55,129 nucleotides of DNA from an uncultured Candidatus Saccharibacteria bacterium (lineage in GTDB: Bacteria > Patescibacteriota > Minisyncoccia > Phycocordibacterales > UBA9973), in NCBI GenBank assembly GCA_964390875.1, contig CAYMIO010000001.1, positions 49,875 through 105,003 on the forward strand, given 5' to 3'. The notes beneath the pieces are model-generated. The model worked only from the letters and a program-made list of their open reading frames with translations, was not told the origin of the DNA and did no database searches. Made by a program: the position numbers and the translations under genes. Shown in pieces: positions 27,183-47,468 of this stretch. Positions within the stretch are counted from its first letter, which is position 1, and each line of letters opens with the position of its first letter.

Positions 27183-28199
27183 TTAGTGATGACCTCCGTG
27201 TCCGTGCGCATCTTTATTGCGATAGCGACGAGCGACAAGGATGATCACAAGGATGATGATAATGAGGAGAATCCATCCAAGGAGAGAATTCGGGAAGAAT
27301 CCGTATCCAAAGAATGCGAGAGCTCCGAGGTTGCTACGATCCATATCTTCGATAGAAGCGATCTCTTCAGCTTCTACAACAGTATTTGAAACTGTGTTTC
27401 CGCTGTTTGATGAGCTTGATCCACCAGAACTGACTACAGCACCTGTCGAAACTTTCTTGGTTGTGAACGTGTAGATGTTTCCGTAATCAACTGTCTGACC
27501 ATTCTGCGCTGCTGCGCGGAAGTAGTAGGTAGTGTTGGCTGAGAGTCCGATGATCTTCTGATTGAAGTTCGCTGACTCGGCATACATCTGCTGCGATACG
27601 GTCTTTGTGTTGAGTGCGTTTGATGTTGTGCCGTATTCGAACCAGACCATTACACTGCCGTTGTTGGCGAATGTGTATGATCCTTCAAGTGTTGCGCTCG
27701 ATGTTCCAACACCATTTGCTGAAAGCGTTGTGGCGTTAAGAAGAGCAGCATTTGTCGAAACGTTTCCGTTTCCACCAGTGTTGGTATTTGTTGCGCCACT
27801 TGAGTTCATGATCTGGGGGCCGCCGTATCCGTAGGTGCTTGAGTAGATGTTTGAAGCATACTGAGGAGCATACGCGATCTGACCTGAGCTTGCTCCAGAG
27901 TTGATTATCTGAGGAGCTGAACCTGTACCCTGGTAGATGTTGGCTGTGTATGAGGGAACCGGAGGAACGTATCCTGTACCAGAACCTGAAGGGGAGACAA
28001 CAGGAAGGTTTGCGGGAATGTATCCGCCAGAAACCTGTCCATACGTGTTCATGTTGATGATCTGTGGATCTCCTGCATTTTGGAGCTGTGGGCCGTTGGC
28101 AAGAATATACTGGGCGCCAGCCGAGCCTGCTCCCATAAGCATACCCATAGAGGCCGCTGCAAGGAAAGCTATGAAATTGGTCTTGGTATTCGTTTTCAT
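27183..28199 (-). CDS. surface protein: signal peptide, PQII-repeat region, FN3-like module, C-terminal anchor motif
   Basis: The module SATLEGSY...WFEYG...IIGLSANTTYYFRAAAQN...FTT is paralogous to modules in the neighbouring gene. The C-terminus reads NLGALAFFGYGFFPNSLLGWILLIIIILVIILVARRY plus a His-rich tail. Confidence 0.8.
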   Translation of the reverse strand: MKTNTKTNFIAFLAAASMGMLMGAGSAGAQYILANGPQLQNAGDPQIINMNTYGQVSGGYIPANLPVVSPSGSGTGYVPPVPSYTANIYQGTGSAPQIINSGASSGQIAYAPQYASNIYSSTYGYGGPQIMNSSGATNTNTGGNGNVSTNAALLNATTLSANGVGTSSATLEGSYTFANNGSVMVWFEYGTTSNALNTKTVSQQMYAESANFNQKIIGLSANTTYYFRAAAQNGQTVDYGNIYTFTTKKVSTGAVVSSGGSSSSNSGNTVSNTVVEAEEIASIEDMDRSNLGALAFFGYGFFPNSLLGWILLIIIILVIILVARRYRNKDAHGHGGHH

Positions 28200-28241
28200 A
28201 AGACAAGTATACCATAGCTGTATAAAAAAGTCAATAGGTAC

Positions 28242-28270
28242 AAAAAGAGCCCCGTTTGGGGCTCTTTTTG
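28242..28270. terminator. terminator between the two minus-strand surface-protein genes
   Basis: AAAAAGAGCCCC-gttt-GGGGCTCTTTTT. Confidence 0.7.
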
Positions 28271-28285
28271 CTAGGCATTAGCATT

Positions 28286-30418
28286 TTAATGTGTGGAGTG
28301 ACTTGGTTTTGAGCCGTAGAGCTCGCGGGCAATGATGAGAGCAGTCGCAATAAGGAGTATCAGGATAAGCCAGCCGACAATCGTGCGAGGGAGGAATCCA
28401 TCACCTCCAAAGAGGGCGAGTCCGGCAAGGTTGTTGCCTGAGCGGCACTGGTTGGGGTTTTGTACACCGTAGGCGATAGCATCATCGGTCGTGTTTTTAG
28501 TTCCATGTACAAACGATGCGGCTGCTGTAGTGACGATGCGGTTTTCAGAGAATGATCGAGCGCTGTAGTCACCGGTGATGTAGATCGTACCTGATGTGTT
28601 TTTAGCAAGCGATACGAATGTGAGGGTTACGCTTCGGTCACTTGGTGTGTATGTTCCAGCAGTGGTGCTGCGGAGTGTCACATAGTGAGGAATCGTTACG
28701 CGGATCACAACATTTTTAAGGTCTACTCCCGAGATATTTTTATATGTCACTGTGGCATCATATGCATCACGAGGACATACTGATTCGTTTCGAAGTGCTA
28801 CCTTAAGGTCAAGCCAATTACTTGAGCTTCCACCTCCTGAGTAGACAGTCTGGTTTACAATAGTGTGTGTATTTGTCGGTGTTGTTGTGTAGGTCGGTGT
28901 GTATGTTGGAACGAATGAAGGAGTGTATGTGGGAGGGTAGTAGTCGGTATTTCCACCAGTGACATACACGGTGATTGTGTCTGAATCAGAACCTTCGTCG
29001 CCATCAGCATAGAGAGTGAATGTTGTTGTTTGATAGAGTTCGTCTGATTCTGTTTCGTCGTCATCGTCGAAGTTGTTGCCTTCAACTGGGCCGTAGATAG
29101 TGATGTCATCACAGTCAGTAGTTTCCCATTCAAGATCAACGGTATCGCCATAACTGATACTTGTATCGTTTACATCGAACGAATCGATTTCACATTCGTC
29201 ATTGTTATTGTTGTTATCATTGTCAGCTTGGATGGTTTCAGATTCTGACACTGAACCACCATTTCCATATGCGGTGATAGTGTATGTTTCGTCATTCCAG
29301 ATTTCATCTGTGTCGACTTCGTCGTCTGCGTCGTATGTACCACTGATGCCGTCACCTGAAAGGTACACGTAATCACAGTTTGTTGTTTCCCATTCAAGTG
29401 TTGCTTCGTCTCCTTCATCAACTGAGTTTGGAGCATCGAAGTAGTCGATAGTACAGTCGTTTCCGCCTCCGCCGTTGTTGGTGACCGTGATAGTAACAGT
29501 AGCGCTATCAGAACCTCCATTACCACTTGCTGAAAGAGTGTAGGTTGTTGTTGTGTAAAGAGTTCCTGTTGAAACTGAACCTGTAGGAATTGTCACAGAA
29601 CCGATCGACGTGATCGATGCTGATGTACAGTTTGTCGTTGTCCAAGAAAGAGTTGCAGAATCGCCTTCGTTTATCGAAGTATCGTTTGCAGAAAACGAAG
29701 TGATATCACATCCGTTTCCACCTCCACCTCCACCGCCACCATTGGTTGTTGTGGTAAACGAAACGGTTGTTGAAGCTGCGGTTGTGCCACCAGCATTCTG
29801 TGCGTAGGCTTTGTAGTAGTAGGTTGTATTTGCCTGAAGACCTGAGATATCCTGCGTGAAATTTCCTGAGCTTCCTGACTGTGTAACTTGTGCTGTTGTT
29901 GTCGCGCCGACAAGACCAGCGTTGTTGGCATATTTAAACCATGTGGTTGTCGTAGAACCATTTCCGTTGAAGTAGCCTTTGAGAGTCGCTGATGTACTTG
30001 CGATGTTTGTCGCTGTAAGTGTCATTGCTGTTGGTGCGGTAATAGCAGGAACAGTAAATTGAATCACTGAACCGTAGCCAAAACCATCGCCGATACCAAC
30101 TGCTTGAAAGTAGTAGGTGGTACCTGGAGTTACTGAAATGTTTGCAGTATGTGAACCTGAAGCGGTTGTGTATGTCGTGGGAGTCGTTGAACTCGGCATT
30201 GTTGGATTGGTGCCGTATTTGAACCAGACCGAAATATCGTCAGCACCGTTTGCATTCCACGAAGCATTAAGTGTCGCAGATGTCTGCGTGATGCTTGAGG
30301 CTGAAAGGGTAGTGACGGTTGGGTTGGTTGCAAACGCCGTGTTTGAAACGCCGAAAATTCCCATAAGGGTAAATGTTGCGACCGCGAGAAGTTTTTTGAT
30401 TGTGTTTTTCATATACAT
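28286..30418 (-). CDS. large surface protein: signal peptide, two FN3-like modules, three Cys-bracketed tandem modules, C-terminal anchor motif
   Basis: 710 aa. FN3-like modules end in NTTYYYKAYAQN. There is a poly-Gly linker and three C.I..F...GD...L.W.TT.C modules. The C-terminus reads NLAGLALFGGDGFLPRTIVGWLILILLIATALIIARELY. Confidence 0.85.
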   Translation of the reverse strand: MYMKNTIKKLLAVATFTLMGIFGVSNTAFATNPTVTTLSASSITQTSATLNASWNANGADDISVWFKYGTNPTMPSSTTPTTYTTASGSHTANISVTPGTTYYFQAVGIGDGFGYGSVIQFTVPAITAPTAMTLTATNIASTSATLKGYFNGNGSTTTTWFKYANNAGLVGATTTAQVTQSGSSGNFTQDISGLQANTTYYYKAYAQNAGGTTAASTTVSFTTTTNGGGGGGGGNGCDITSFSANDTSINEGDSATLSWTTTNCTSASITSIGSVTIPTGSVSTGTLYTTTTYTLSASGNGGSDSATVTITVTNNGGGGNDCTIDYFDAPNSVDEGDEATLEWETTNCDYVYLSGDGISGTYDADDEVDTDEIWNDETYTITAYGNGGSVSESETIQADNDNNNNNDECEIDSFDVNDTSISYGDTVDLEWETTDCDDITIYGPVEGNNFDDDDETESDELYQTTTFTLYADGDEGSDSDTITVYVTGGNTDYYPPTYTPSFVPTYTPTYTTTPTNTHTIVNQTVYSGGGSSSNWLDLKVALRNESVCPRDAYDATVTYKNISGVDLKNVVIRVTIPHYVTLRSTTAGTYTPSDRSVTLTFVSLAKNTSGTIYITGDYSARSFSENRIVTTAAASFVHGTKNTTDDAIAYGVQNPNQCRSGNNLAGLALFGGDGFLPRTIVGWLILILLIATALIIARELYGSKPSHSTH
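28958..29710 (-). repeat. three tandem ~80-90-aa coding repeats inside the 710-aa surface protein
   Basis: Modules start at Cys237, Cys322 and Cys409 (CDITSFSANDTSINEGDSATLSWTTTNC / CTIDYFDAPNSVDEGDEATLEWETTNC / CEIDSFDVNDTSISYGDTVDLEWETTDC). Confidence 0.8.
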
Positions 30419-31061: not shown

Positions 31062-32264
31062 ATGAAGAGAATACTTACTCTGTTCAAGGGCGCGCTGGTA
31101 GCGCTACTTTTGACCCTAACCTGGGGCAACAAGGTGACTGGGCAGACACTGCCCAGCGTGTCGTTCACCAGTGCCTACATAGGCACTAATGACGACTTTT
31201 TTTATGGAGTCTCTGCGGATTGCGGAGACACCACATCCACCATAAAACTCTTCGTGTATTTGCATCAAGAGGATTGGGAATTAGAATGGTGGTCTCTTGA
31301 GATCACAAACGATACTACTTTTTTCGGAAGCGTTGGCAATCTTTTTCCAGGAGACTCTATGAGTTTCCATCTGGAAATAAGTAACGTGTTTGGAGCAACA
31401 GAATCAACTACGGTTGATTCGTGGGTTCCATACGAAAATAGTGCACCGTCAGTCGATAATGCATTCTTGTTGGACGTCACTCCGACTTCTGCGGTGGTCC
31501 AGATGCAAATTACCAACTGGGGAATGGATTGCCAGTTCATTTCAGCGATTGCCGATATGGCAAATCCTGACATATGGCTCTACGATCCGTATGTGATCGC
31601 AGCGGATATCAATGCGATCGACCATGTTGTCGATCTCACCAATCTTCAGCCAGAGCACACGTATATGTTTGTCGCTTCTGCAGAAAACGACTGGGGAACG
31701 GGTGCTGATACTGTGGTGTTTACAACACCGGCTCTTCCTGAAGCTCTCGAAATTATCGCGAGTGAAGAAGAAATTGCAGTTGGTTCATCAAGTATGGAAG
31801 TTGGGTTTCAACTCACTGTACCAAGTGGAACAACTGCAGATGTGTATCTGTATGTTGGTGAGGATAGTGAAGTGAATTCTTCTTTCTTTACCGCTGGTCC
31901 ACTTTTTTTTGAAAGTGGAATATACAATGCATCTGTCATTGTTACAGGTCTCGATGTTGATGACGCTGATGGGTACTACGGCAAATGGGTTGCGATCAGT
32001 TCAGATGGAACGATATCAGAAGATATTTTTCATTTTGAACAAGAAACATACACAAACGTTTCTGAAGAAATTGCAGCTACTCACCAATGGTTCTATGAAG
32101 GAATCCTTCATGGTTTCAGTGATGGAATCGTTGAAGTGTTTTCTATGAGCGGACAGCTTATGTATGTCTGCTCAGGTGCAGATGAAATTGATCTCTCATT
32201 CCTTCCACGTGGCATGTATATGGCGCAGGGAAGTGAAAAAGTATTGAAGTTTGCTGTAGACTAG
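31062..32264 (+). CDS. secreted protein with FN3-like modules and a T9SS-type (Por_Secre_tail-like) C-terminal domain
   Basis: Signal peptide (ALLLTLTWGNKVTGQ). The last ~60 aa (VEVFSMSGQLMYVCSGADEIDLSFLPRGMYMAQGSEKVLKFAVD) fit the T9SS type-A CTD pattern. Confidence 0.75.
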   Translation: MKRILTLFKGALVALLLTLTWGNKVTGQTLPSVSFTSAYIGTNDDFFYGVSADCGDTTSTIKLFVYLHQEDWELEWWSLEITNDTTFFGSVGNLFPGDSMSFHLEISNVFGATESTTVDSWVPYENSAPSVDNAFLLDVTPTSAVVQMQITNWGMDCQFISAIADMANPDIWLYDPYVIAADINAIDHVVDLTNLQPEHTYMFVASAENDWGTGADTVVFTTPALPEALEIIASEEEIAVGSSSMEVGFQLTVPSGTTADVYLYVGEDSEVNSSFFTAGPLFFESGIYNASVIVTGLDVDDADGYYGKWVAISSDGTISEDIFHFEQETYTNVSEEIAATHQWFYEGILHGFSDGIVEVFSMSGQLMYVCSGADEIDLSFLPRGMYMAQGSEKVLKFAVD

Positions 32265-41671: not shown

Positions 41672-42421
41672 ATGAACAATCCAGTGATTGCTTTGAAATA
41701 CATATTCGCACTCACACTGTTCTTCGTGGTTTCTGGTGCTGTCTTGGCTGCTGACCTTACGAGTGGAAGTTTTATTATTCGCGATCCGGTACTTGGTACA
41801 GGAAGTGGATATAGTTCTTCGGCTTCGTTTAGTGTACAGGGAAGCGGTAATCTCAATACCCAAGGATATGGTTCTTCAGCAAGCTTTATCGGAGAATATG
41901 GATTTTTATATTACCAGGCTCCTGTCGTGAGCCAGAGTATAACCTTCGAACTTTCTGATAGCACGCTCGCCTTCGGCTCGCTCTCATCTTCATCACCACG
42001 CTTTGCCACAGGCACGAGTGGATCGGGCACCGACAGTGTAGCGCATACTATTGTTATTGAAACGACTGCGCCCAGTGGATACTCTCTTCGATACACAGGA
42101 CTTCCGTTTTCATCGGGAGCAAGTGTTATCGATGCAGCTACTATTGTGAATGATGAGGATGGAACATCGGGTGTTGAGCAGTTTGGCATCAGTGCTTCTG
42201 TTTCCGACGATGCTGACGTTGCGGTCGGGTACGACCACAACGCTACACCCGCGAATAGAGATTGGAAATTTGTCGCTAACACTCCTGTAACGATTGTTTC
42301 AGAAGATGGTCAGACAGCGGCAGAAACGATCAATCTTTATTATCTTGCAAATATCGCAGCAAGTACTCCTGCTGGACAGTACGCTACAGAAATTACATAT
42401 ACGGTTACAGGTAATTTTTAA
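41672..42421 (+). CDS. secreted subunit with a WxL-like C-terminal module (Tyr-for-Trp variant)
   Basis: Signal peptide (VLA-AD). The C-terminal ~160 aa align by eye to the next gene: SITF..FG.LS..AHT..V.T.A..GY.L.Y.G...GT.G.EQF.IS...GYD...DW.FV...YLANIAA.T.AG.Y...ITY.VTGNF-stop. Confidence 0.7.
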   Translation: MNNPVIALKYIFALTLFFVVSGAVLAADLTSGSFIIRDPVLGTGSGYSSSASFSVQGSGNLNTQGYGSSASFIGEYGFLYYQAPVVSQSITFELSDSTLAFGSLSSSSPRFATGTSGSGTDSVAHTIVIETTAPSGYSLRYTGLPFSSGASVIDAATIVNDEDGTSGVEQFGISASVSDDADVAVGYDHNATPANRDWKFVANTPVTIVSEDGQTAAETINLYYLANIAASTPAGQYATEITYTVTGNF

Positions 42422-42536
42422 CGATATAATAGAAAGATATCCACATAAATCAGCCTCACAAGAGCGCTTCGGCCACCTTTTTGTGATAAGATGTACTTTA
42501 TAAGACTATTATTTATTTATATATTGTTTCCAAATT

Positions 42537-43604
42537 ATGTTTAAAAAAATCGTGAGTGGTGCGCTTGTAATACTGTTTGTGTGTGTGGTTAGTGGTATCC
42601 CGCAGGTTCTTTTCGCTGCTTCACTCACAGCACTTTCAGATACGATGTCCGACCAAAATGCGAGCGCTGCATCAAGTCACACTATCCGATTTACTACACC
42701 AACTGGAGCATCAGACAACACTGACACTATCATCATCACATTTCCTTCGGACTTTAACTTCACATCAAAGACTATTGGCTCAGTGTCTTTCACTCACGGA
42801 TCAACCACTGGTGCTGAAACAACAGAGACACTCGCATCGAGTGCCACTGGTAGTGCATGGGGTGCTGCGTTCTCAGGTACACAAAACCGTGTACTCACGC
42901 TCACTGCTCCAACCGATGGTGTCGGTGCAGCATCACTTGCAGCAAGCGACAAGGTTATCATCACGTACGATTCAACCAACTCCCTAAACCCAAGCTCAAC
43001 AGGTAGCTTCACCATAGCTATTACTGGTTCGTTTGGAGATACTGGTAACATTGCGATTCCTATCGTAGCTGGTGGTGCTGGTGACGACAGTGTGGCTATT
43101 ACTGCTAACGTAGATCCTTCCATCACATTTACAAACGATGACGCTGCTATTGGTTTTGGAACACTGTCAGCTTCAGCCGCAACCTACGCTAATGCAGGAG
43201 CGACTGGCTCAAGTTCAGATACTACAGCACACACGATGACTGTAGGTACGAACGCAGCTGGTGGATACACCATTACATACTCGGGAGCAACACTTACATC
43301 GGGTGGAAATACTATCACTGCTATTAACGCTGGTATAACTGATGACGCAAACGGTACTCCAGGTAGTGAACAGTTTGCTATCAGTGGTGCTCTTACCGGA
43401 ACAGGTTCTATGGCTTCAGGATACGACAACTCAGGTACTGCTGACTGGCGTTTTGTTCCAAGTACAACAACAACACTTGCTTCACATACTGGTGTTGTTT
43501 CTTCAGACAGCATTGCTATGCACTATCTTGCGAATATCGCAGCAAACACTGAAGCTGGTTCGTACTCAAATACCATTACCTATATCGCAACCGGTAACTT
43601 CTAG
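42537..43604 (+). CDS. secreted subunit, paralog of the previous gene (same C-terminal module plus an extra N-terminal beta-rich domain)
   Basis: Signal peptide (LFA-AS). Ends ...HYLANIAANTEAGSYSNTITYIATGNF. Thr/Ser/Gly/Ala-rich. Confidence 0.7.
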   Translation: MFKKIVSGALVILFVCVVSGIPQVLFAASLTALSDTMSDQNASAASSHTIRFTTPTGASDNTDTIIITFPSDFNFTSKTIGSVSFTHGSTTGAETTETLASSATGSAWGAAFSGTQNRVLTLTAPTDGVGAASLAASDKVIITYDSTNSLNPSSTGSFTIAITGSFGDTGNIAIPIVAGGAGDDSVAITANVDPSITFTNDDAAIGFGTLSASAATYANAGATGSSSDTTAHTMTVGTNAAGGYTITYSGATLTSGGNTITAINAGITDDANGTPGSEQFAISGALTGTGSMASGYDNSGTADWRFVPSTTTTLASHTGVVSSDSIAMHYLANIAANTEAGSYSNTITYIATGNF

Positions 43605-43615
43605 CGAGACCCACA

Positions 43616-44635
43616 ATGCAAAAAGGATTGCTTTATTACATACAGCGCGCTGTCCTACTCTCACTCTTTTTTCTCGCTCTTCCGTTTGGAGCACACGCGC
43701 TGACGCTCACACCTGTACGCCATGAACTTCGCGGAGATCCCGGTGAGACTATTCGTGAGACGGTAACTCTCATCAACGAGAAGTCTACAGGCGAAACATT
43801 CTATACATCATTTGCAAATTTTGAAGCAGAAGGTGAGAGTGGTAGTCCTAGTTTTGTTGAACCAATAGAAGGTGTGGGAACATGGATCGTCACCAACTCT
43901 TCGGTTTATGTAGCTCCTAATAGTTCAAAAGAAGTTGAATTGTCTATTACGATTCCAAAGAGCGCAAATCCTGGAGGATATTTCGGCGCTGTCTTTTTTG
44001 GAACATCTCCTTCTTCTTCAGCTGGTGAAGTCGCTATCGGTTCCAAGATTGGTGTACTCGTACTTCTCACTGTTAATGGTGAAGTAAGTAAAGATGGAGG
44101 TGTCCTTGAATTTGCGACGAAAGATATGCAGAAATGGTACACAGCGCTCCCTGTCCCACTGTACTATCGTTTTCAAAATGCCGGAGGCGACCGTATAAAA
44201 CCAGAAGGTGAAATTCTTGTACGCAACCTTATCGGTTTAATCGCTGCTCGCATTCCTGCCAACCAAGTCCAGGGAAACATTCTCCCAAGTTCAACTCGAA
44301 GGTTTGAAGTGCTCTGGCAATCAAAACATGGAAGCTCTGAACCTCACGAAGGAGGATTGGGCTTTTTCCAAGCAGTGTCATACCAGTGGAACAATTTTGC
44401 GTTTGGAAGGTATGTGGCGCACCTTGATCTGACTCATTCAGGAAATGAGTTACACCACAAAGCAAAGTATTCGTTCTGGGTATTTCCATGGCAGCTCTTG
44501 ATCGTTGTTGGTGTGGGCCTACTCGTTTTCGTGACTCTTCTTAGAAAAGGTCTTGCGCGCTACAACGCGTGGATTATTAAGAAAGCACGAATCTCACTTG
44601 ATACCACTCATCAAAACAACAGCAAAGAAAAGTAA
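43616..44635 (+). CDS. CscA-like protein (DUF916/DUF3324-like, i.e. WxL-interacting-protein architecture) with a C-terminal TM anchor
   Basis: Signal peptide (AHA-LT). LTLTPVRHEL..GETIRETVTLINEKS, VAPNSSKEVELSITIPKSANPGGYFGAVFF, GVLVLLTVNGEV, ILPSSTRRFEV. The C-terminal helix LLIVVGVGLLVFVTLL is followed by a basic tail. Sits 11 nt after the previous gene. Confidence 0.65.
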   Translation: MQKGLLYYIQRAVLLSLFFLALPFGAHALTLTPVRHELRGDPGETIRETVTLINEKSTGETFYTSFANFEAEGESGSPSFVEPIEGVGTWIVTNSSVYVAPNSSKEVELSITIPKSANPGGYFGAVFFGTSPSSSAGEVAIGSKIGVLVLLTVNGEVSKDGGVLEFATKDMQKWYTALPVPLYYRFQNAGGDRIKPEGEILVRNLIGLIAARIPANQVQGNILPSSTRRFEVLWQSKHGSSEPHEGGLGFFQAVSYQWNNFAFGRYVAHLDLTHSGNELHHKAKYSFWVFPWQLLIVVGVGLLVFVTLLRKGLARYNAWIIKKARISLDTTHQNNSKEK

Positions 44636-45575
44636 ATCTGCGTGGACAGTATTCTTTTTCCATACAGGAGCTTTTCTTGTACTCGTGTCGCTATTTTGCG
44701 GACCTGTTTCTTCGCATGTGGTGAATGCGGCAGCTGAAAGTGTTTCTATTCAAGCCATCGTGTCTGGAGCTCCGGAAGAAGAACCATCTGGTGGGGGAGG
44801 TGGCGGAGGAAGTCCGTCTCCTTCGGAAGAAACAGAAGATGAGATTGTCGTTCCCCCATCTTCGGTGTTTTTTTCAGGAGTTGCGTATCCTGAAGCGTCA
44901 GTCTTCCTTCTCAAAAACGGCCAGCAGGCAGAAAAAACAATAGCGCGTACTGACGCTGCGTTTTCAATACTGTTACCCGATCTTACTCCAGGGTCATATA
45001 CCTTTTCGGTTGTTGCCGAAGATGCCAATGGGCGCCGTTCTACGCTGCGCACGTTTCCGATTCGCGTTTCAGAAAATGTGGCGACGACGATCTCTGATAT
45101 TTTGATCTCACCTACAGTGTATGTGAATCTTTCTTCTGTGGTCAAAGGAGAACCACTTGTTGTTTCAGGGTACGGAGCTCCGCTGGCATCTGTGGTACTC
45201 ACTCTGCGCTCCGCTGTTTCATCTTTTTTCTCTCTTCCCACTACCGTGAGTGGAGAATATACTACAACGCTTGATACCGCAGTTTTGCCGCTCGGAAGTT
45301 ACCAAGCATCAGCGCATACTCTTTTTGCTGATGAAAGTGAGAGTCCGGAAAGTGCACTTATATCTTTTTCTATAAATGACCAAGAACTTCCGTTTCCTGA
45401 AGAAACATACACACCTGCTGATATCAACTACGACATGCGAGTGAACCTTGTTGATTTTTCAATTCTCGCGTATTGGTATAACAAAGACGTTCCACCAGCA
45501 AAAGTCGATTTGAATGGCGATGGACGTGTCACGATTACTGATTTTAGTATGCTTGCGTATGCGTGGACAGGATAA
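44553..45575 (+). CDS. secreted protein with two Ig-like repeats and a C-terminal dockerin-like module
   Basis: Signal peptide (VNA-AAE) and a poly-Gly linker. The C-terminus DINYDMRVNLVDFSILAYWY...DLNGDGRVTITDFSMLAYAW forms the two dockerin Ca-binding segments. The start is uncertain (ATG 44553 or in-frame TTG 44598). Both overlap the upstream gene. Confidence 0.7.
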   Translation: MRATTRGLLRKHESHLIPLIKTTAKKSKSAWTVFFFHTGAFLVLVSLFCGPVSSHVVNAAAESVSIQAIVSGAPEEEPSGGGGGGGSPSPSEETEDEIVVPPSSVFFSGVAYPEASVFLLKNGQQAEKTIARTDAAFSILLPDLTPGSYTFSVVAEDANGRRSTLRTFPIRVSENVATTISDILISPTVYVNLSSVVKGEPLVVSGYGAPLASVVLTLRSAVSSFFSLPTTVSGEYTTTLDTAVLPLGSYQASAHTLFADESESPESALISFSINDQELPFPEETYTPADINYDMRVNLVDFSILAYWYNKDVPPAKVDLNGDGRVTITDFSMLAYAWTG

Positions 45576-46464
45576 AAAATGGTTTTTTGCTGTTAGTGTT
45601 GTGTGTGCTCTTGTATTGTCGCCAGGGTCTCTTTTTGCTGCGCGAGTCTATTTTGAATCAGGACGTCCCGCGCACACTTCTTCATCTGAACTGCGGTATG
45701 TGGATGTGATGCTCGATACTGAAGGTGTCCCTGTAAACGCAGTATCTCTTGAAGTTGAATTTGATGATGAGGCTCTTTCTTTTGTCTCTTCACAACACGA
45801 CGATAGTATAGTGACTTCGTGGTTTGTTGCACCACAAGTAAATGGTAATCACGTTGTTCTTTCGGGAATCATGGCGGGAGGTTTTGATGCAGTGATCGAT
45901 CCTGTCTCAAAAGAATTACTCCCTGGTCGTATTGCTCGTCTTATGTTTTCGTCGCAGAAGGAGGTGGAGACCGTACTTTCTTTTACTGAAGCATCGCTGG
46001 CCCTTCATGATGGCCAAGGCACACCAGAGATTCCTAAAACAGAATCAATCCGACTCTTAAGCGGAAGCGATGTTCCACCATCAGATACATTGCCAGTTGA
46101 TACTGATCCGCCAGAAGTATTTATTCCGATGGTTGGCAAGGACGCTGCACTTTTTGATGGAAAGTATTTTCTTGTGTTTGAAACCAAAGACCGCGGTTCA
46201 GGTGTTGCGTACTATGAAGTGAAAGAAGGTCGTGGTGTGTGGCAACGCGCAGTGAGCCCGTACGAAATTCAGGACCAGACTCTTCGCAAGCAGCTCTTTG
46301 TGAAGGCAGTGGATGTTGAGGGCAATGTTCTCACTGTTAAAACGTTTGAACGAGATTTGTACCTCACATGGGTTGCTATTGTAATAGGCGGCGGCGCTCT
46401 TTTAGGTATCGTGTTTCTTCGCGTATTGAAAAAACGCATGAATCCGACTATACTACATCAATGA
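45559..46464 (+). CDS. membrane-anchored cohesin-like protein 1
   Basis: Signal peptide. Cohesin-like segment VDVMLDTEGVPVNAVSLEVEFDDEALSFVSS...VVLSGIMAGG...ARLMFSS. C-terminal TM helix WVAIVIGGGALLGIVFL followed by RVLKKR. Overlaps the upstream stop by 17 nt. Confidence 0.65.
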   Translation: MRGQDKKWFFAVSVVCALVLSPGSLFAARVYFESGRPAHTSSSELRYVDVMLDTEGVPVNAVSLEVEFDDEALSFVSSQHDDSIVTSWFVAPQVNGNHVVLSGIMAGGFDAVIDPVSKELLPGRIARLMFSSQKEVETVLSFTEASLALHDGQGTPEIPKTESIRLLSGSDVPPSDTLPVDTDPPEVFIPMVGKDAALFDGKYFLVFETKDRGSGVAYYEVKEGRGVWQRAVSPYEIQDQTLRKQLFVKAVDVEGNVLTVKTFERDLYLTWVAIVIGGGALLGIVFLRVLKKRMNPTILHQ

Positions 46465-47468
46465 TACGATCGGTACGCTTTTTTCTGTCCACGCTCGCAG
46501 TGTGTATTGTTTTCATATGTATACCAGTACACGGAACGCTTTTTGCGGCTTCGTTTGGTTTTGCGCCCAACGCAACTGATATTTCTGTAGGGGAACAGTT
46601 CTCAGTGGAGGTGTACACTAACACAACCGGAATGTCCGTAAACGCCATTTCAGGAACCGTGAAATATATGCCGGGGATGTTTGATGTTGTTTCTGTTCGA
46701 AAGTCCGATGCGATCTCCTTTTGGGTTAAGGAGCCAAAAGCTGAAAACGGCTCTATTCTTTTTGAAGGCATCGCTCTTGATCCAGGTGTGTCAGGTCCGC
46801 GCGTTCCAGTACTTACTGTCATACTCAAAGCAAAACAAAGCGGTGTTTCTGAAATGAAAATCACCAATGCTTCTATTTTGAAAAATGACGGGCTGGGCAC
46901 AAACGTTTTAAACGGTCTTGCGTCTTTACAACTCAAAGTGCGCGCGAGTTCTGTTTCGGTTGGTGCACTATCGGCGTCTTCTAGTGTGGAAGCAAACTCG
47001 ACTCCACTGGCTTACGATACGTTTGCTCTTCCTGTTATCACCGACTATTCAGCCGTTGTTTCTTCTGGTGGACGTTTGTTTGTGAAAGGTAAAGGGGAAC
47101 CAAATGCCCTTACACTCATTCAATTTAAAAAACTATCACCGCCGACCTTTGGACAGCGAATGCTCAGTGTGATGGGTGATCGAGAATCTGCCACACTCTC
47201 TGACGTGTATGTTATCAACAGTGCTGACGGAAGTTTTGAGTATGTATCCAGTCGTCCTGTATCTCCTGGCTTGTATAGCGCTATTCCGTCGCTTGTGGGG
47301 AATGGTATTGAAAAGAAAACACCAGGTTTGGGTGCTCAGGTAAATGTGATTGCGAGCCGTAAAGATTTTTTCTTGGCACAAGTAGTGGATTGGGCAGTGA
47401 TGCTTATACCCGTCATGCTTCTTGCGGTGCTCACCGTTCTTGTCTATCGTAAAAAACAGGTACAGTAA
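46461..47468 (+). CDS. membrane-anchored cohesin-like protein 2
   Basis: Signal peptide. FGFAPNATDISVGEQFSVEVYTNTTGMSVNAISGTVKYMPGMFDVVSV...ILFEGIALDPGVSG...VLTVILKAKQSG is cohesin-like. C-terminal TM helix followed by YRKK. ATGA start/stop overlap with the upstream gene. Confidence 0.7.
   Translation: MIRSVRFFLSTLAVCIVFICIPVHGTLFAASFGFAPNATDISVGEQFSVEVYTNTTGMSVNAISGTVKYMPGMFDVVSVRKSDAISFWVKEPKAENGSILFEGIALDPGVSGPRVPVLTVILKAKQSGVSEMKITNASILKNDGLGTNVLNGLASLQLKVRASSVSVGALSASSSVEANSTPLAYDTFALPVITDYSAVVSSGGRLFVKGKGEPNALTLIQFKKLSPPTFGQRMLSVMGDRESATLSDVYVINSADGSFEYVSSRPVSPGLYSAIPSLVGNGIEKKTPGLGAQVNVIASRKDFFLAQVVDWAVMLIPVMLLAVLTVLVYRKKQVQ

Follow-up and report, generated by a model that had tools for sequence, protein, structure and literature searches.

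An uncatalogued C-terminal module on adhesin- or stalk-like surface proteins of one Patescibacteria lineage, considered as a membrane anchor and as a sorting signal

Why do two neighbouring surface proteins of an ultra-small, uncultured Candidatus Saccharibacteria bacterium end in the same way? The proteins are encoded by adjacent minus-strand genes in a stretch of 55,129 nucleotides (assembly GCA_964390875.1, contig CAYMIO010000001.1, positions 49,875 to 105,003), all of which is referred to here as the window. Each protein closes with a tail of about 45 residues. An earlier note, made from the letters of the DNA alone, had proposed this tail as a candidate sorting or anchoring signal. CPR (Candidate Phyla Radiation)/Patescibacteria live attached to other cells and, to our knowledge, how they build and anchor their surfaces is largely unknown. 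We report that the tail is an uncatalogued, lineage-restricted C-terminal module, and on balance we lean towards reading it as the anchoring module of lineage-specific adhesin- or stalk-like surface proteins, retained in the membrane.

The two open reading frames (ORFs) encode proteins of 338 and 710 amino acids (aa), here called carriers. From N- to C-terminus, the 338-aa carrier contains a signal peptide, a low-complexity region rich in Gly/Ser/Tyr/Pro, a single Fn3-like domain, a linker rich in Ser and the tail. In the 710-aa carrier, the signal peptide is followed by two Fn3-like domains, by three Ig-like repeats that are Cys-framed and have acidic linkers, by a DUF11-like beta-sandwich and by the tail. 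In both cases the N-terminus is signal-peptide-like. The protein ends quoted in the earlier note are exact, and BLASTP alignment of the two carriers matches their tails at 42% identity (E=1e-9). The carriers also share an Fn3-like domain (42% identity, E=4e-12); nothing else aligns. Their parts are as follows.

27183 to 28199, minus strand: gene of the 338-aa carrier (ORF)
27453 to 27734, minus strand: Fn3-like domain of the 338-aa carrier, residues ~156-249 (weak Pur_ac_phosph_N (Fn3-like) Pfam match)
27186 to 27332, minus strand: whole tail of the 338-aa carrier, residues 290-338
27273 to 27332, minus strand: predicted extracellular juxtamembrane signature of the 338-aa carrier, N290-W309, NLGALAFFGYGFFPNSLLGW (sequence, hidden Markov model (HMM) and family logo)
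27231 to 27272, minus strand: Leu/Ile transmembrane helix of the 338-aa carrier, I310-A323, ILLIIIILVIILVA (the equivalent paralog segment is a confident AlphaFold2 (AF2) helix)
27186 to 27230, minus strand: predicted cytoplasmic end of the 338-aa carrier, RRYRNKDAHGHGGHH, in which basic stop-transfer residues and a conserved Tyr precede a C-terminus rich in His
28286 to 30418, minus strand: gene of the 710-aa carrier (ORF)
28454 to 28822, minus strand: DUF11-like beta-sandwich of the 710-aa carrier, residues ~533-655 (Pfam match, AF2, Foldseek)
28289 to 28432, minus strand: whole tail of the 710-aa carrier, residues 663-710
28370 to 28432, minus strand: predicted extracellular juxtamembrane signature of the 710-aa carrier, N663-W683, NLAGLALFGGDGFLPRTIVGW (BLASTP; AF2 coil between folded domain and helix)
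28328 to 28369, minus strand: transmembrane helix of the 710-aa carrier, L684-A697, LILILLIATALIIA (AF2 helix)
28289 to 28327, minus strand: predicted cytoplasmic end of the 710-aa carrier, RELYGSKPSHSTH, with His as its last residue

Pfam matches of the 710-aa carrier are to DUF11, Pur_ac_phosph_N and PhoD_N, the DUF11 score (22.7 bits) lying slightly below the model's 24.6 cut-off. Orthologs of the 338-aa carrier are 328-337 aa long. A word-indexed homolog search returned four close relatives only, all unnamed or annotated as ‘hypothetical protein’.

The tail extends well beyond this pair. The source genome (685 kb in 29 contigs, 96.9% complete) encodes a third carrier on contig C25, unlinked to the window genes, which was found with a regular expression and then with a tail HMM. 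Its open frame spans ~800 aa; the protein is called publicly at 757 aa. Searched with a three-sequence tail HMM, the genome yielded three ORFs at E ~1e-21, and the next ORF scored E=0.014. The genomes surveyed comprise 37 genomes of the same family, each from a different genus, and 24 genomes of sister families. Among the 60 relatives searched, the tail is present in 36 of the 37 family genomes, at 1-3 copies per positive genome (62 in total, mean 1.7; E<1e-6), and in just 5 of the 24 sister-family genomes, where most matches are weak. A 17-row tail profile searched against 1.84 billion representative proteins identified 1030 clusters at E<=1e-3 (111 at E<=1e-10), and the match is C-terminal in every one among the matches listed. 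With even taxonomic sampling, we found the tail in 11 of 301 genomes of the class and 4 of 401 of the phylum, in essence this family together with a handful of neighbours. The carrier lineage, one family-level clade of Patescibacteria, appears in database records as Paceibacterota, Nomurabacteria or ‘Patescibacteria group’. Neither in the window proteins nor in 65 relatives is the tail covered by a Pfam or NCBIfam model, and we found no description of it in the literature. The earlier note, which had described a conserved signature followed by a transmembrane helix and a basic cluster and had suggested a scan of the genome and its relatives, thus pointed to a genuine C-terminal module that several proteins per genome carry.

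Outside the family (loci L185-L193; genomes G038, G057, G141, G151, G345 and G058), related tails keep only the core F-x-P-x-T/S-L-x-[G/E]-W, the helix and R-x-x-Y. The N-terminal half, N-L-A-G-L-A-L-F-G, is lost or altered in these tails, and Glu often replaces the Gly that precedes Trp.

Within the tail, conservation is concentrated in the signature. Both window carriers show N-L-x-G-L-A-L-F-G-x-G-F-x-P-x-[TS]-L-x-G-W, followed by a Leu/Ile helix, A-R-R-x-Y and a His-ended terminus. In a logo of 150 tails, F18, P20 and W26 are each conserved at 100%, followed by G/A6 and R/K41 at 97% (the latter R 85%, K 12%), G25 at 96%, T/S22 at 92%, G13 at 91%, G16 at 88%, F10 at 84%, L4 at 81% and Y/F44 at 74%. 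Some 14 residues of pure Leu/Ile/Val separate W26 from R/K41. The logo has no Cys column; a Cys 6-9 residues upstream occurs in the DUF11-type subset only. Across 16 aligned C-terminal regions, mean pairwise identity is highest in the signature (61%), followed by the helix (46%), the DUF11-like domain before the tail (34%) and the segment beyond the helix (15%). AF2 run on this alignment gave a beta-sandwich with a predicted local distance difference test (pLDDT) score >90, a coil at the signature (pLDDT ~50) and a helix at residues 180-201 of a 210-residue model of the 710-aa paralog (pLDDT 87-92). The best Foldseek matches are TRAP subunits, which are single-pass type-I proteins, and integrin calf domains; the CLIPPER/DUF11 domain 9ifr is also among the matches.

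The segment that follows the helix varies in length but not without pattern. Its overall length is 3-60+ residues, and in the top 150 matches it runs 3-54 residues past the model. His is enriched ten-fold in the post-helix segment and is the last residue in 57 of the 150 tails (38%), against a background of 0.8%. Recurrent endings include ...NLPH / NLP[HR..], ...TTTTVEH, HYEDMDVPxAPY.. and His-Gly runs. In L186, from genome G057 of another family, a Gln/Gly/Tyr/Pro-rich low-complexity cytoplasmic region exceeds 300 aa and the protein still ends in ...SNLPR. Selection acts on the very C-terminal end of the carriers.

The tail is a feature of a single mosaic family of adhesin- or stalk-like proteins and no promiscuous tag. 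With tails removed, all 117 full-length ectodomains examined (117/117) form one similarity network, linked by a shared Fn3-like module, Cys-framed Ig-like repeats and DUF11. Pfam searches of 65 relatives identified DUF11 in 42 (E<=0.001), otherwise beta-sandwich domains only, and no enzyme domain. NCBIfam searches of the same 65 identified DUF11-type repeats (TIGR01451 in 26/65), acidic double-disulfide repeats and a few ‘choice-of-anchor’ domains. The tail is thus one mosaic family's module, and neither the 117 ectodomains nor the Pfam survey revealed it on an unrelated protein. The domain that precedes the tail is of the DUF11/CLIPPER type (PF01345, TIGR01451; AF2 beta-sandwich), and an N-terminal hydrophobic h-region is present in 99 of 116 full-length members.

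Carriers also recur in tandem. A long carrier followed directly by a short one (~200-470 aa) on the same strand is seen not only in the window but also in at least six further genera (G010:C16, G018:C18, G017:C1, G022:C9, G014:C1 and G001:C30). The recurrence of this pairing suggests that the two proteins may work together, possibly as a hetero-oligomer formed via the shared tails.

How, then, would the tail operate? In the reading that we favour, carriers would be exported through Sec via the N-terminal signal peptide, and the Leu/Ile helix with the following Arg/Lys would act as a stop-transfer sequence. The mature carrier would be a type-I membrane protein, with beta-sandwich domains outside, a single transmembrane helix and a cytoplasmic tail that ranges from short to long. 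The signature, 20 residues that are Gly/aromatic-rich and probably extended, would lie at the membrane's outer interface. No other part of the protein is as constrained, and such strong constraint on an extracellular juxtamembrane peptide argues for a specific contact: the signature most likely serves to dock the base of a stalk, with the membrane surface, sister carriers or a conserved membrane partner as the docking site. The end in the cytoplasm would be kept and functional, because selection acts on its terminal His, NLPH and other motifs. We infer the membrane topology, the retention of the tail and what the signature binds, whereas the conservation across the family, the C-terminal position, the architecture, the taxonomic restriction and the absence or non-correlation of known sorting enzymes were observed. 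Together, the juxtamembrane peptide and the His/NLPH terminus hint at a membrane partner and at trans-membrane coupling.

Single-pass type-I adhesion receptors, such as integrin subunits and the TRAP beta/delta fold neighbours, offer a parallel. They too place an Ig-like or calf-like beta-sandwich directly above one transmembrane helix, and their membrane-proximal segment is conserved, with short linear motifs marking the cytoplasmic end. The likeness is architectural only, with no sequence relationship.

Several observations weigh against a retained anchor. First, the motif is linear and non-helical, keeps F-x-P and G-W invariant and surpasses the folded domains in conservation, as an enzyme recognition site would. 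Second, the module follows the three-part grammar that sorting signals have, and it is common to paralogs whose ectodomains differ in length. Finally, a CPBP protease and a PEMT/ICMT-like methyltransferase, both of the CAAX-processing type, are restricted to the same lineage. We leave some weight on a sorting signal because the motif resembles a recognition site and because CAAX-pathway-type enzymes share the lineage.

The alternative that survives best is that the tail is a new cleaved sorting signal (‘GFxPxTLxGW-CTERM’) cut by a non-sortase membrane enzyme, either CPBP/Rce1-like or unrecognised, with the methyltransferase perhaps modifying the product. We regard this as unlikely, though deserving of attention. 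The layout of the tail would suit such a role, as would a signature that is its most conserved segment and is predicted to be unstructured. The distribution of CPBP/Rce1-like proteases (PF02517) also fits, with a copy in 23 of the 37 family genomes and in none of the 24 sister-family genomes. CPBP enzymes have been proposed as sorting enzymes for MYXO-CTERM-type tags, and MYXO-, JDVT-, Synerg- and CGP-CTERM, like the present tail, combine a C-terminal tag with a lineage-restricted CPBP/Rce1-like protease (‘myxosortase’) in the same genomes (Haft, bioRxiv 10.1101/2023.06.07.544157). Those tags, however, have an invariant Cys, and CPBP is encoded in every tag-bearing genome and is often adjacent (Haft, bioRxiv 10.1101/2023.06.07.544157). 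The present tail lacks an invariant Cys, and CPBP is never adjacent to a carrier and is missing from 14 of the 37 carrier genomes, including the 100%-complete, two-contig genome G271, which has two carriers. In the source genome the CPBP gene lies on another contig, outside the window (C12:7933-8559). A TMEM175-like channel gene, also lineage-restricted, adjoins it there.

Other properties of the tail also speak against cleavage. Haft's criterion for a generic prokaryotic C-terminal sorting domain is that the tag occurs on non-homologous proteins, whereas this tail never appears on unrelated ectodomains. Conserved motifs at the extreme C-terminus would be unexpected in a discarded peptide, and the long, variable cytoplasmic end is unlike the short basic stub of LPXTG, PEP-CTERM and PGF-CTERM signals. 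PGF-CTERM (archaeosortase A) and PEP-CTERM (exosortase) resemble the tail in having a Gly/Phe/Pro signature directly before a C-terminal transmembrane helix and Arg, in occurring on S-layer-like glycoprotein candidates, and in being lineage-restricted with few copies per genome. They differ in that the tail reads G-F-x-P...G-W rather than P-G-F or P-E-P, and in that known signals stop after a few basic residues, while this tail runs on for 3-60+ residues. Their enzymes (exosortase/archaeosortase, PF09721) have no homolog above the cut-off in the 61 related genomes (best E 0.04). The GlyGly-CTERM/rhombosortase system is also distinct, as no rhomboid-family protease (PF01694) scored above the cut-off in the same 61 genomes, while 14/14 controls were positive. 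NCBIfam CTERM models matched neither the window proteins at E<=1 nor 65 family members at E<=0.01. The tail thus departs from known signals in its long extracellular signature, the lack of a known cognate enzyme and a functional-looking cytoplasmic terminus. Of the two roles raised in the earlier note, anchoring is well supported; sorting by a dedicated enzyme is not, as none of sortase, exosortase/archaeosortase and rhomboid both occurs and correlates with the tail, and CPBP is missing from so many carrier genomes. The note's statement that the window encodes no processing enzyme is correct as far as tested: no sortase occurs genome-wide, and the CPBP and methyltransferase genes are on other contigs.

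One genomic association of the carrier is with the methyltransferase, a 159-aa PEMT/ICMT-like membrane protein (PF04191; C23:2936-3415 in the source genome, outside the window; L044:13119-13589). Its canonical R-H-P-x-Y box reads R-S-P-T-N/H. We identified it in all 37 family genomes and in 4 of the 24 sister-family genomes, and in a class-wide scan strong orthologs were confined to this family and one neighbour. At 17 named carrier loci the flanks are housekeeping genes (tyrS, ruvC, ruvB and one for a PilB-like ATPase on one side; tsaE, polA and holA on the other), and no processing enzyme is adjacent to the carrier. The gene directly upstream of the carrier encodes a variable Gly/Asn-rich secreted protein with no common motif. 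The conserved block is tyrS-ruvC-ruvB-pilB(T2SSE), then variable secreted protein-carrier-tsaE-polA-methyltransferase-holA, which places the methyltransferase between polA and holA. Comparison of coordinates puts it 3-4.5 kb downstream of a carrier on the same strand in ~30 genera. Source contigs C25, with pilB, a gene for a 323-aa protein and the carrier, and C23, with tsaE, polA, the methyltransferase gene and holA, match the block order.

The carrier-methyltransferase association is real. The two genes occupy separate sites of the block, and in two non-carrier genomes both insertions are missing while pilB, then tsaE-polA ... holA, is kept, a pattern that counts in favour of a cleaved and modified signal. 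A functional link between them is only weakly indicated. Essential housekeeping genes stand between the methyltransferase and the carrier, and in one genus the carrier has moved ~14 kb away with the methyltransferase still in place. Moreover, related tails outside the family (genomes G057, G058, G151, G141 and G345) occur in genomes that lack the methyltransferase, and the link may therefore be shared ancestry only. One or two ancestral events within one clade may account for the pattern.

Gene subtraction bears on the same alternative. We compared carrier genomes G006 and G271 with non-carriers G037 and G046, four genomes of the same order, and identified 29 source-genome genes restricted to the carrier genomes. 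They include the carriers themselves, the PEMT/ICMT-like methyltransferase, a PAP2 phosphatase, the TMEM175-like channel, a UPF0160/MYG1-family protein, a Lamin-tail/PKD surface protein and a pseudopilin recognised by its N-terminal reading GFTLIEVMVA. No protease or transpeptidase is among the annotated members; several short or unmatched genes were left unannotated. Set beside Haft's further criterion, a co-occurring processing enzyme identified by phylogenetic profiling or neighbourhood, the four-genome subtraction yields a methyltransferase that is universal in the family and syntenic; it is not a protease, tsaE and polA lie between it and the carrier, and tail-bearing genomes outside the family lack it.

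In eukaryotic CAAX processing, Rce1 acts first and ICMT follows. By analogy, the tail could be the substrate of an undescribed Patescibacteria maturation system in which a CPBP/Rce1-like or unrecognised enzyme acts on G-F-x-P-x-T-L-x-G-W and the methyltransferase modifies the protein, for example at its His-ended C-terminus. This bacterial counterpart of Rce1 and ICMT, operating without a prenyl-cysteine, strikes us as improbable.

Far less probable still is that the tail is a divergent LPXTG signal handled by sortase, with [FLW]-P-x-[TS]-L read as L-P-x-T-G. The resemblance to LPXTG/sortase substrates (TIGR01167/PF00746) is superficial: both kinds of tail are C-terminal on Sec-exported, beta-sandwich-rich surface proteins, including those with DUF11 modules, and both have a short Pro-containing signature, here with an F/L-P-x-T/S core, then a hydrophobic helix and basic residues (this tail has both the helix and the R/K). 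Sortases (PF04203) are indeed encoded in some family genomes (10/37). The source genome, 97% complete, has none, however; 27 of the 37 carrier genomes lack one, whereas 10 of 24 tail-free sister-family genomes have one, and control genomes matched as expected. The residue after T/S22 is L (70%), I (11%), F (10%) or V (5%) and never Gly in the 150 tails, a Gly following three residues on. The signature spans 20 residues rather than five, and the cytoplasmic end is long with conserved terminal motifs. Finally, no Gram_pos_anchor or LPXTG model in Pfam or NCBIfam matched the window proteins or their relatives. We consider a sortase variant effectively refuted.

The same applies to a by-product of recent local duplication or a chance hydrophobic match, for which the adjacency of the window genes and their common Fn3-like domain might speak but whose probability is negligible, as the tail, which the earlier note allowed might be confined to two paralogs, lies far beyond them: on a third, unlinked gene, in 36 of 37 genera and in 1030 clusters with invariant F, P and W, with no intermediate ORF between E=1e-21 for the three carriers and E=0.014.

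Two other candidates were rejected. A type IV prepilin G|FTLIE-like site (G-F...T-L-I-E/G-W) fails on topology: prepilin peptidase cuts at the cytoplasmic face, and the motif here would be at the outer side of a helix oriented N-out/C-in. The position of the E is, in addition, a Gly in 96% of tails. A six-gene window block (41672-47468), which belongs to the 29-gene set and is syntenic in G006 and G271, was considered as the tail's partner. It encodes hypothetical membrane-anchored proteins, one with a dockerin-like end, and occurs in 12 of the 37 family genomes only, with weak homologs outside.

As a marker, the module (~1000 clusters, invariant F-x-P...G-W) singles out the main family of Fn3/DUF11 surface proteins in one widespread lineage, and a tail profile would therefore let annotation pipelines name these ‘hypothetical proteins’. 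The failure of a sortase-type explanation shifts attention to the constrained extracellular juxtamembrane peptide and to the conserved His/NLPH cytoplasmic terminus. Were the tail a sorting signal after all, it would imply a new enzyme class in prokaryotic protein sorting.

Two further observations concern surface proteins of the source genome. The window also encodes a 400-aa secreted protein (31062-32264) that has an Fn3-like domain without the tail studied here; its last 40 residues give a weak, sub-threshold match to the T9SS (type IX secretion system) Por_Secre_tail model (E=0.015, 15.3 bits, cut-off 23). Among the 29 genes restricted to carrier genomes are four nucleotide-sugar epimerase/dehydratase genes (C8:16095-17078, C8:19446-20381, C8:24922-25893 and C18:8467-9396), which may point to a lineage-specific glycan on surface proteins.

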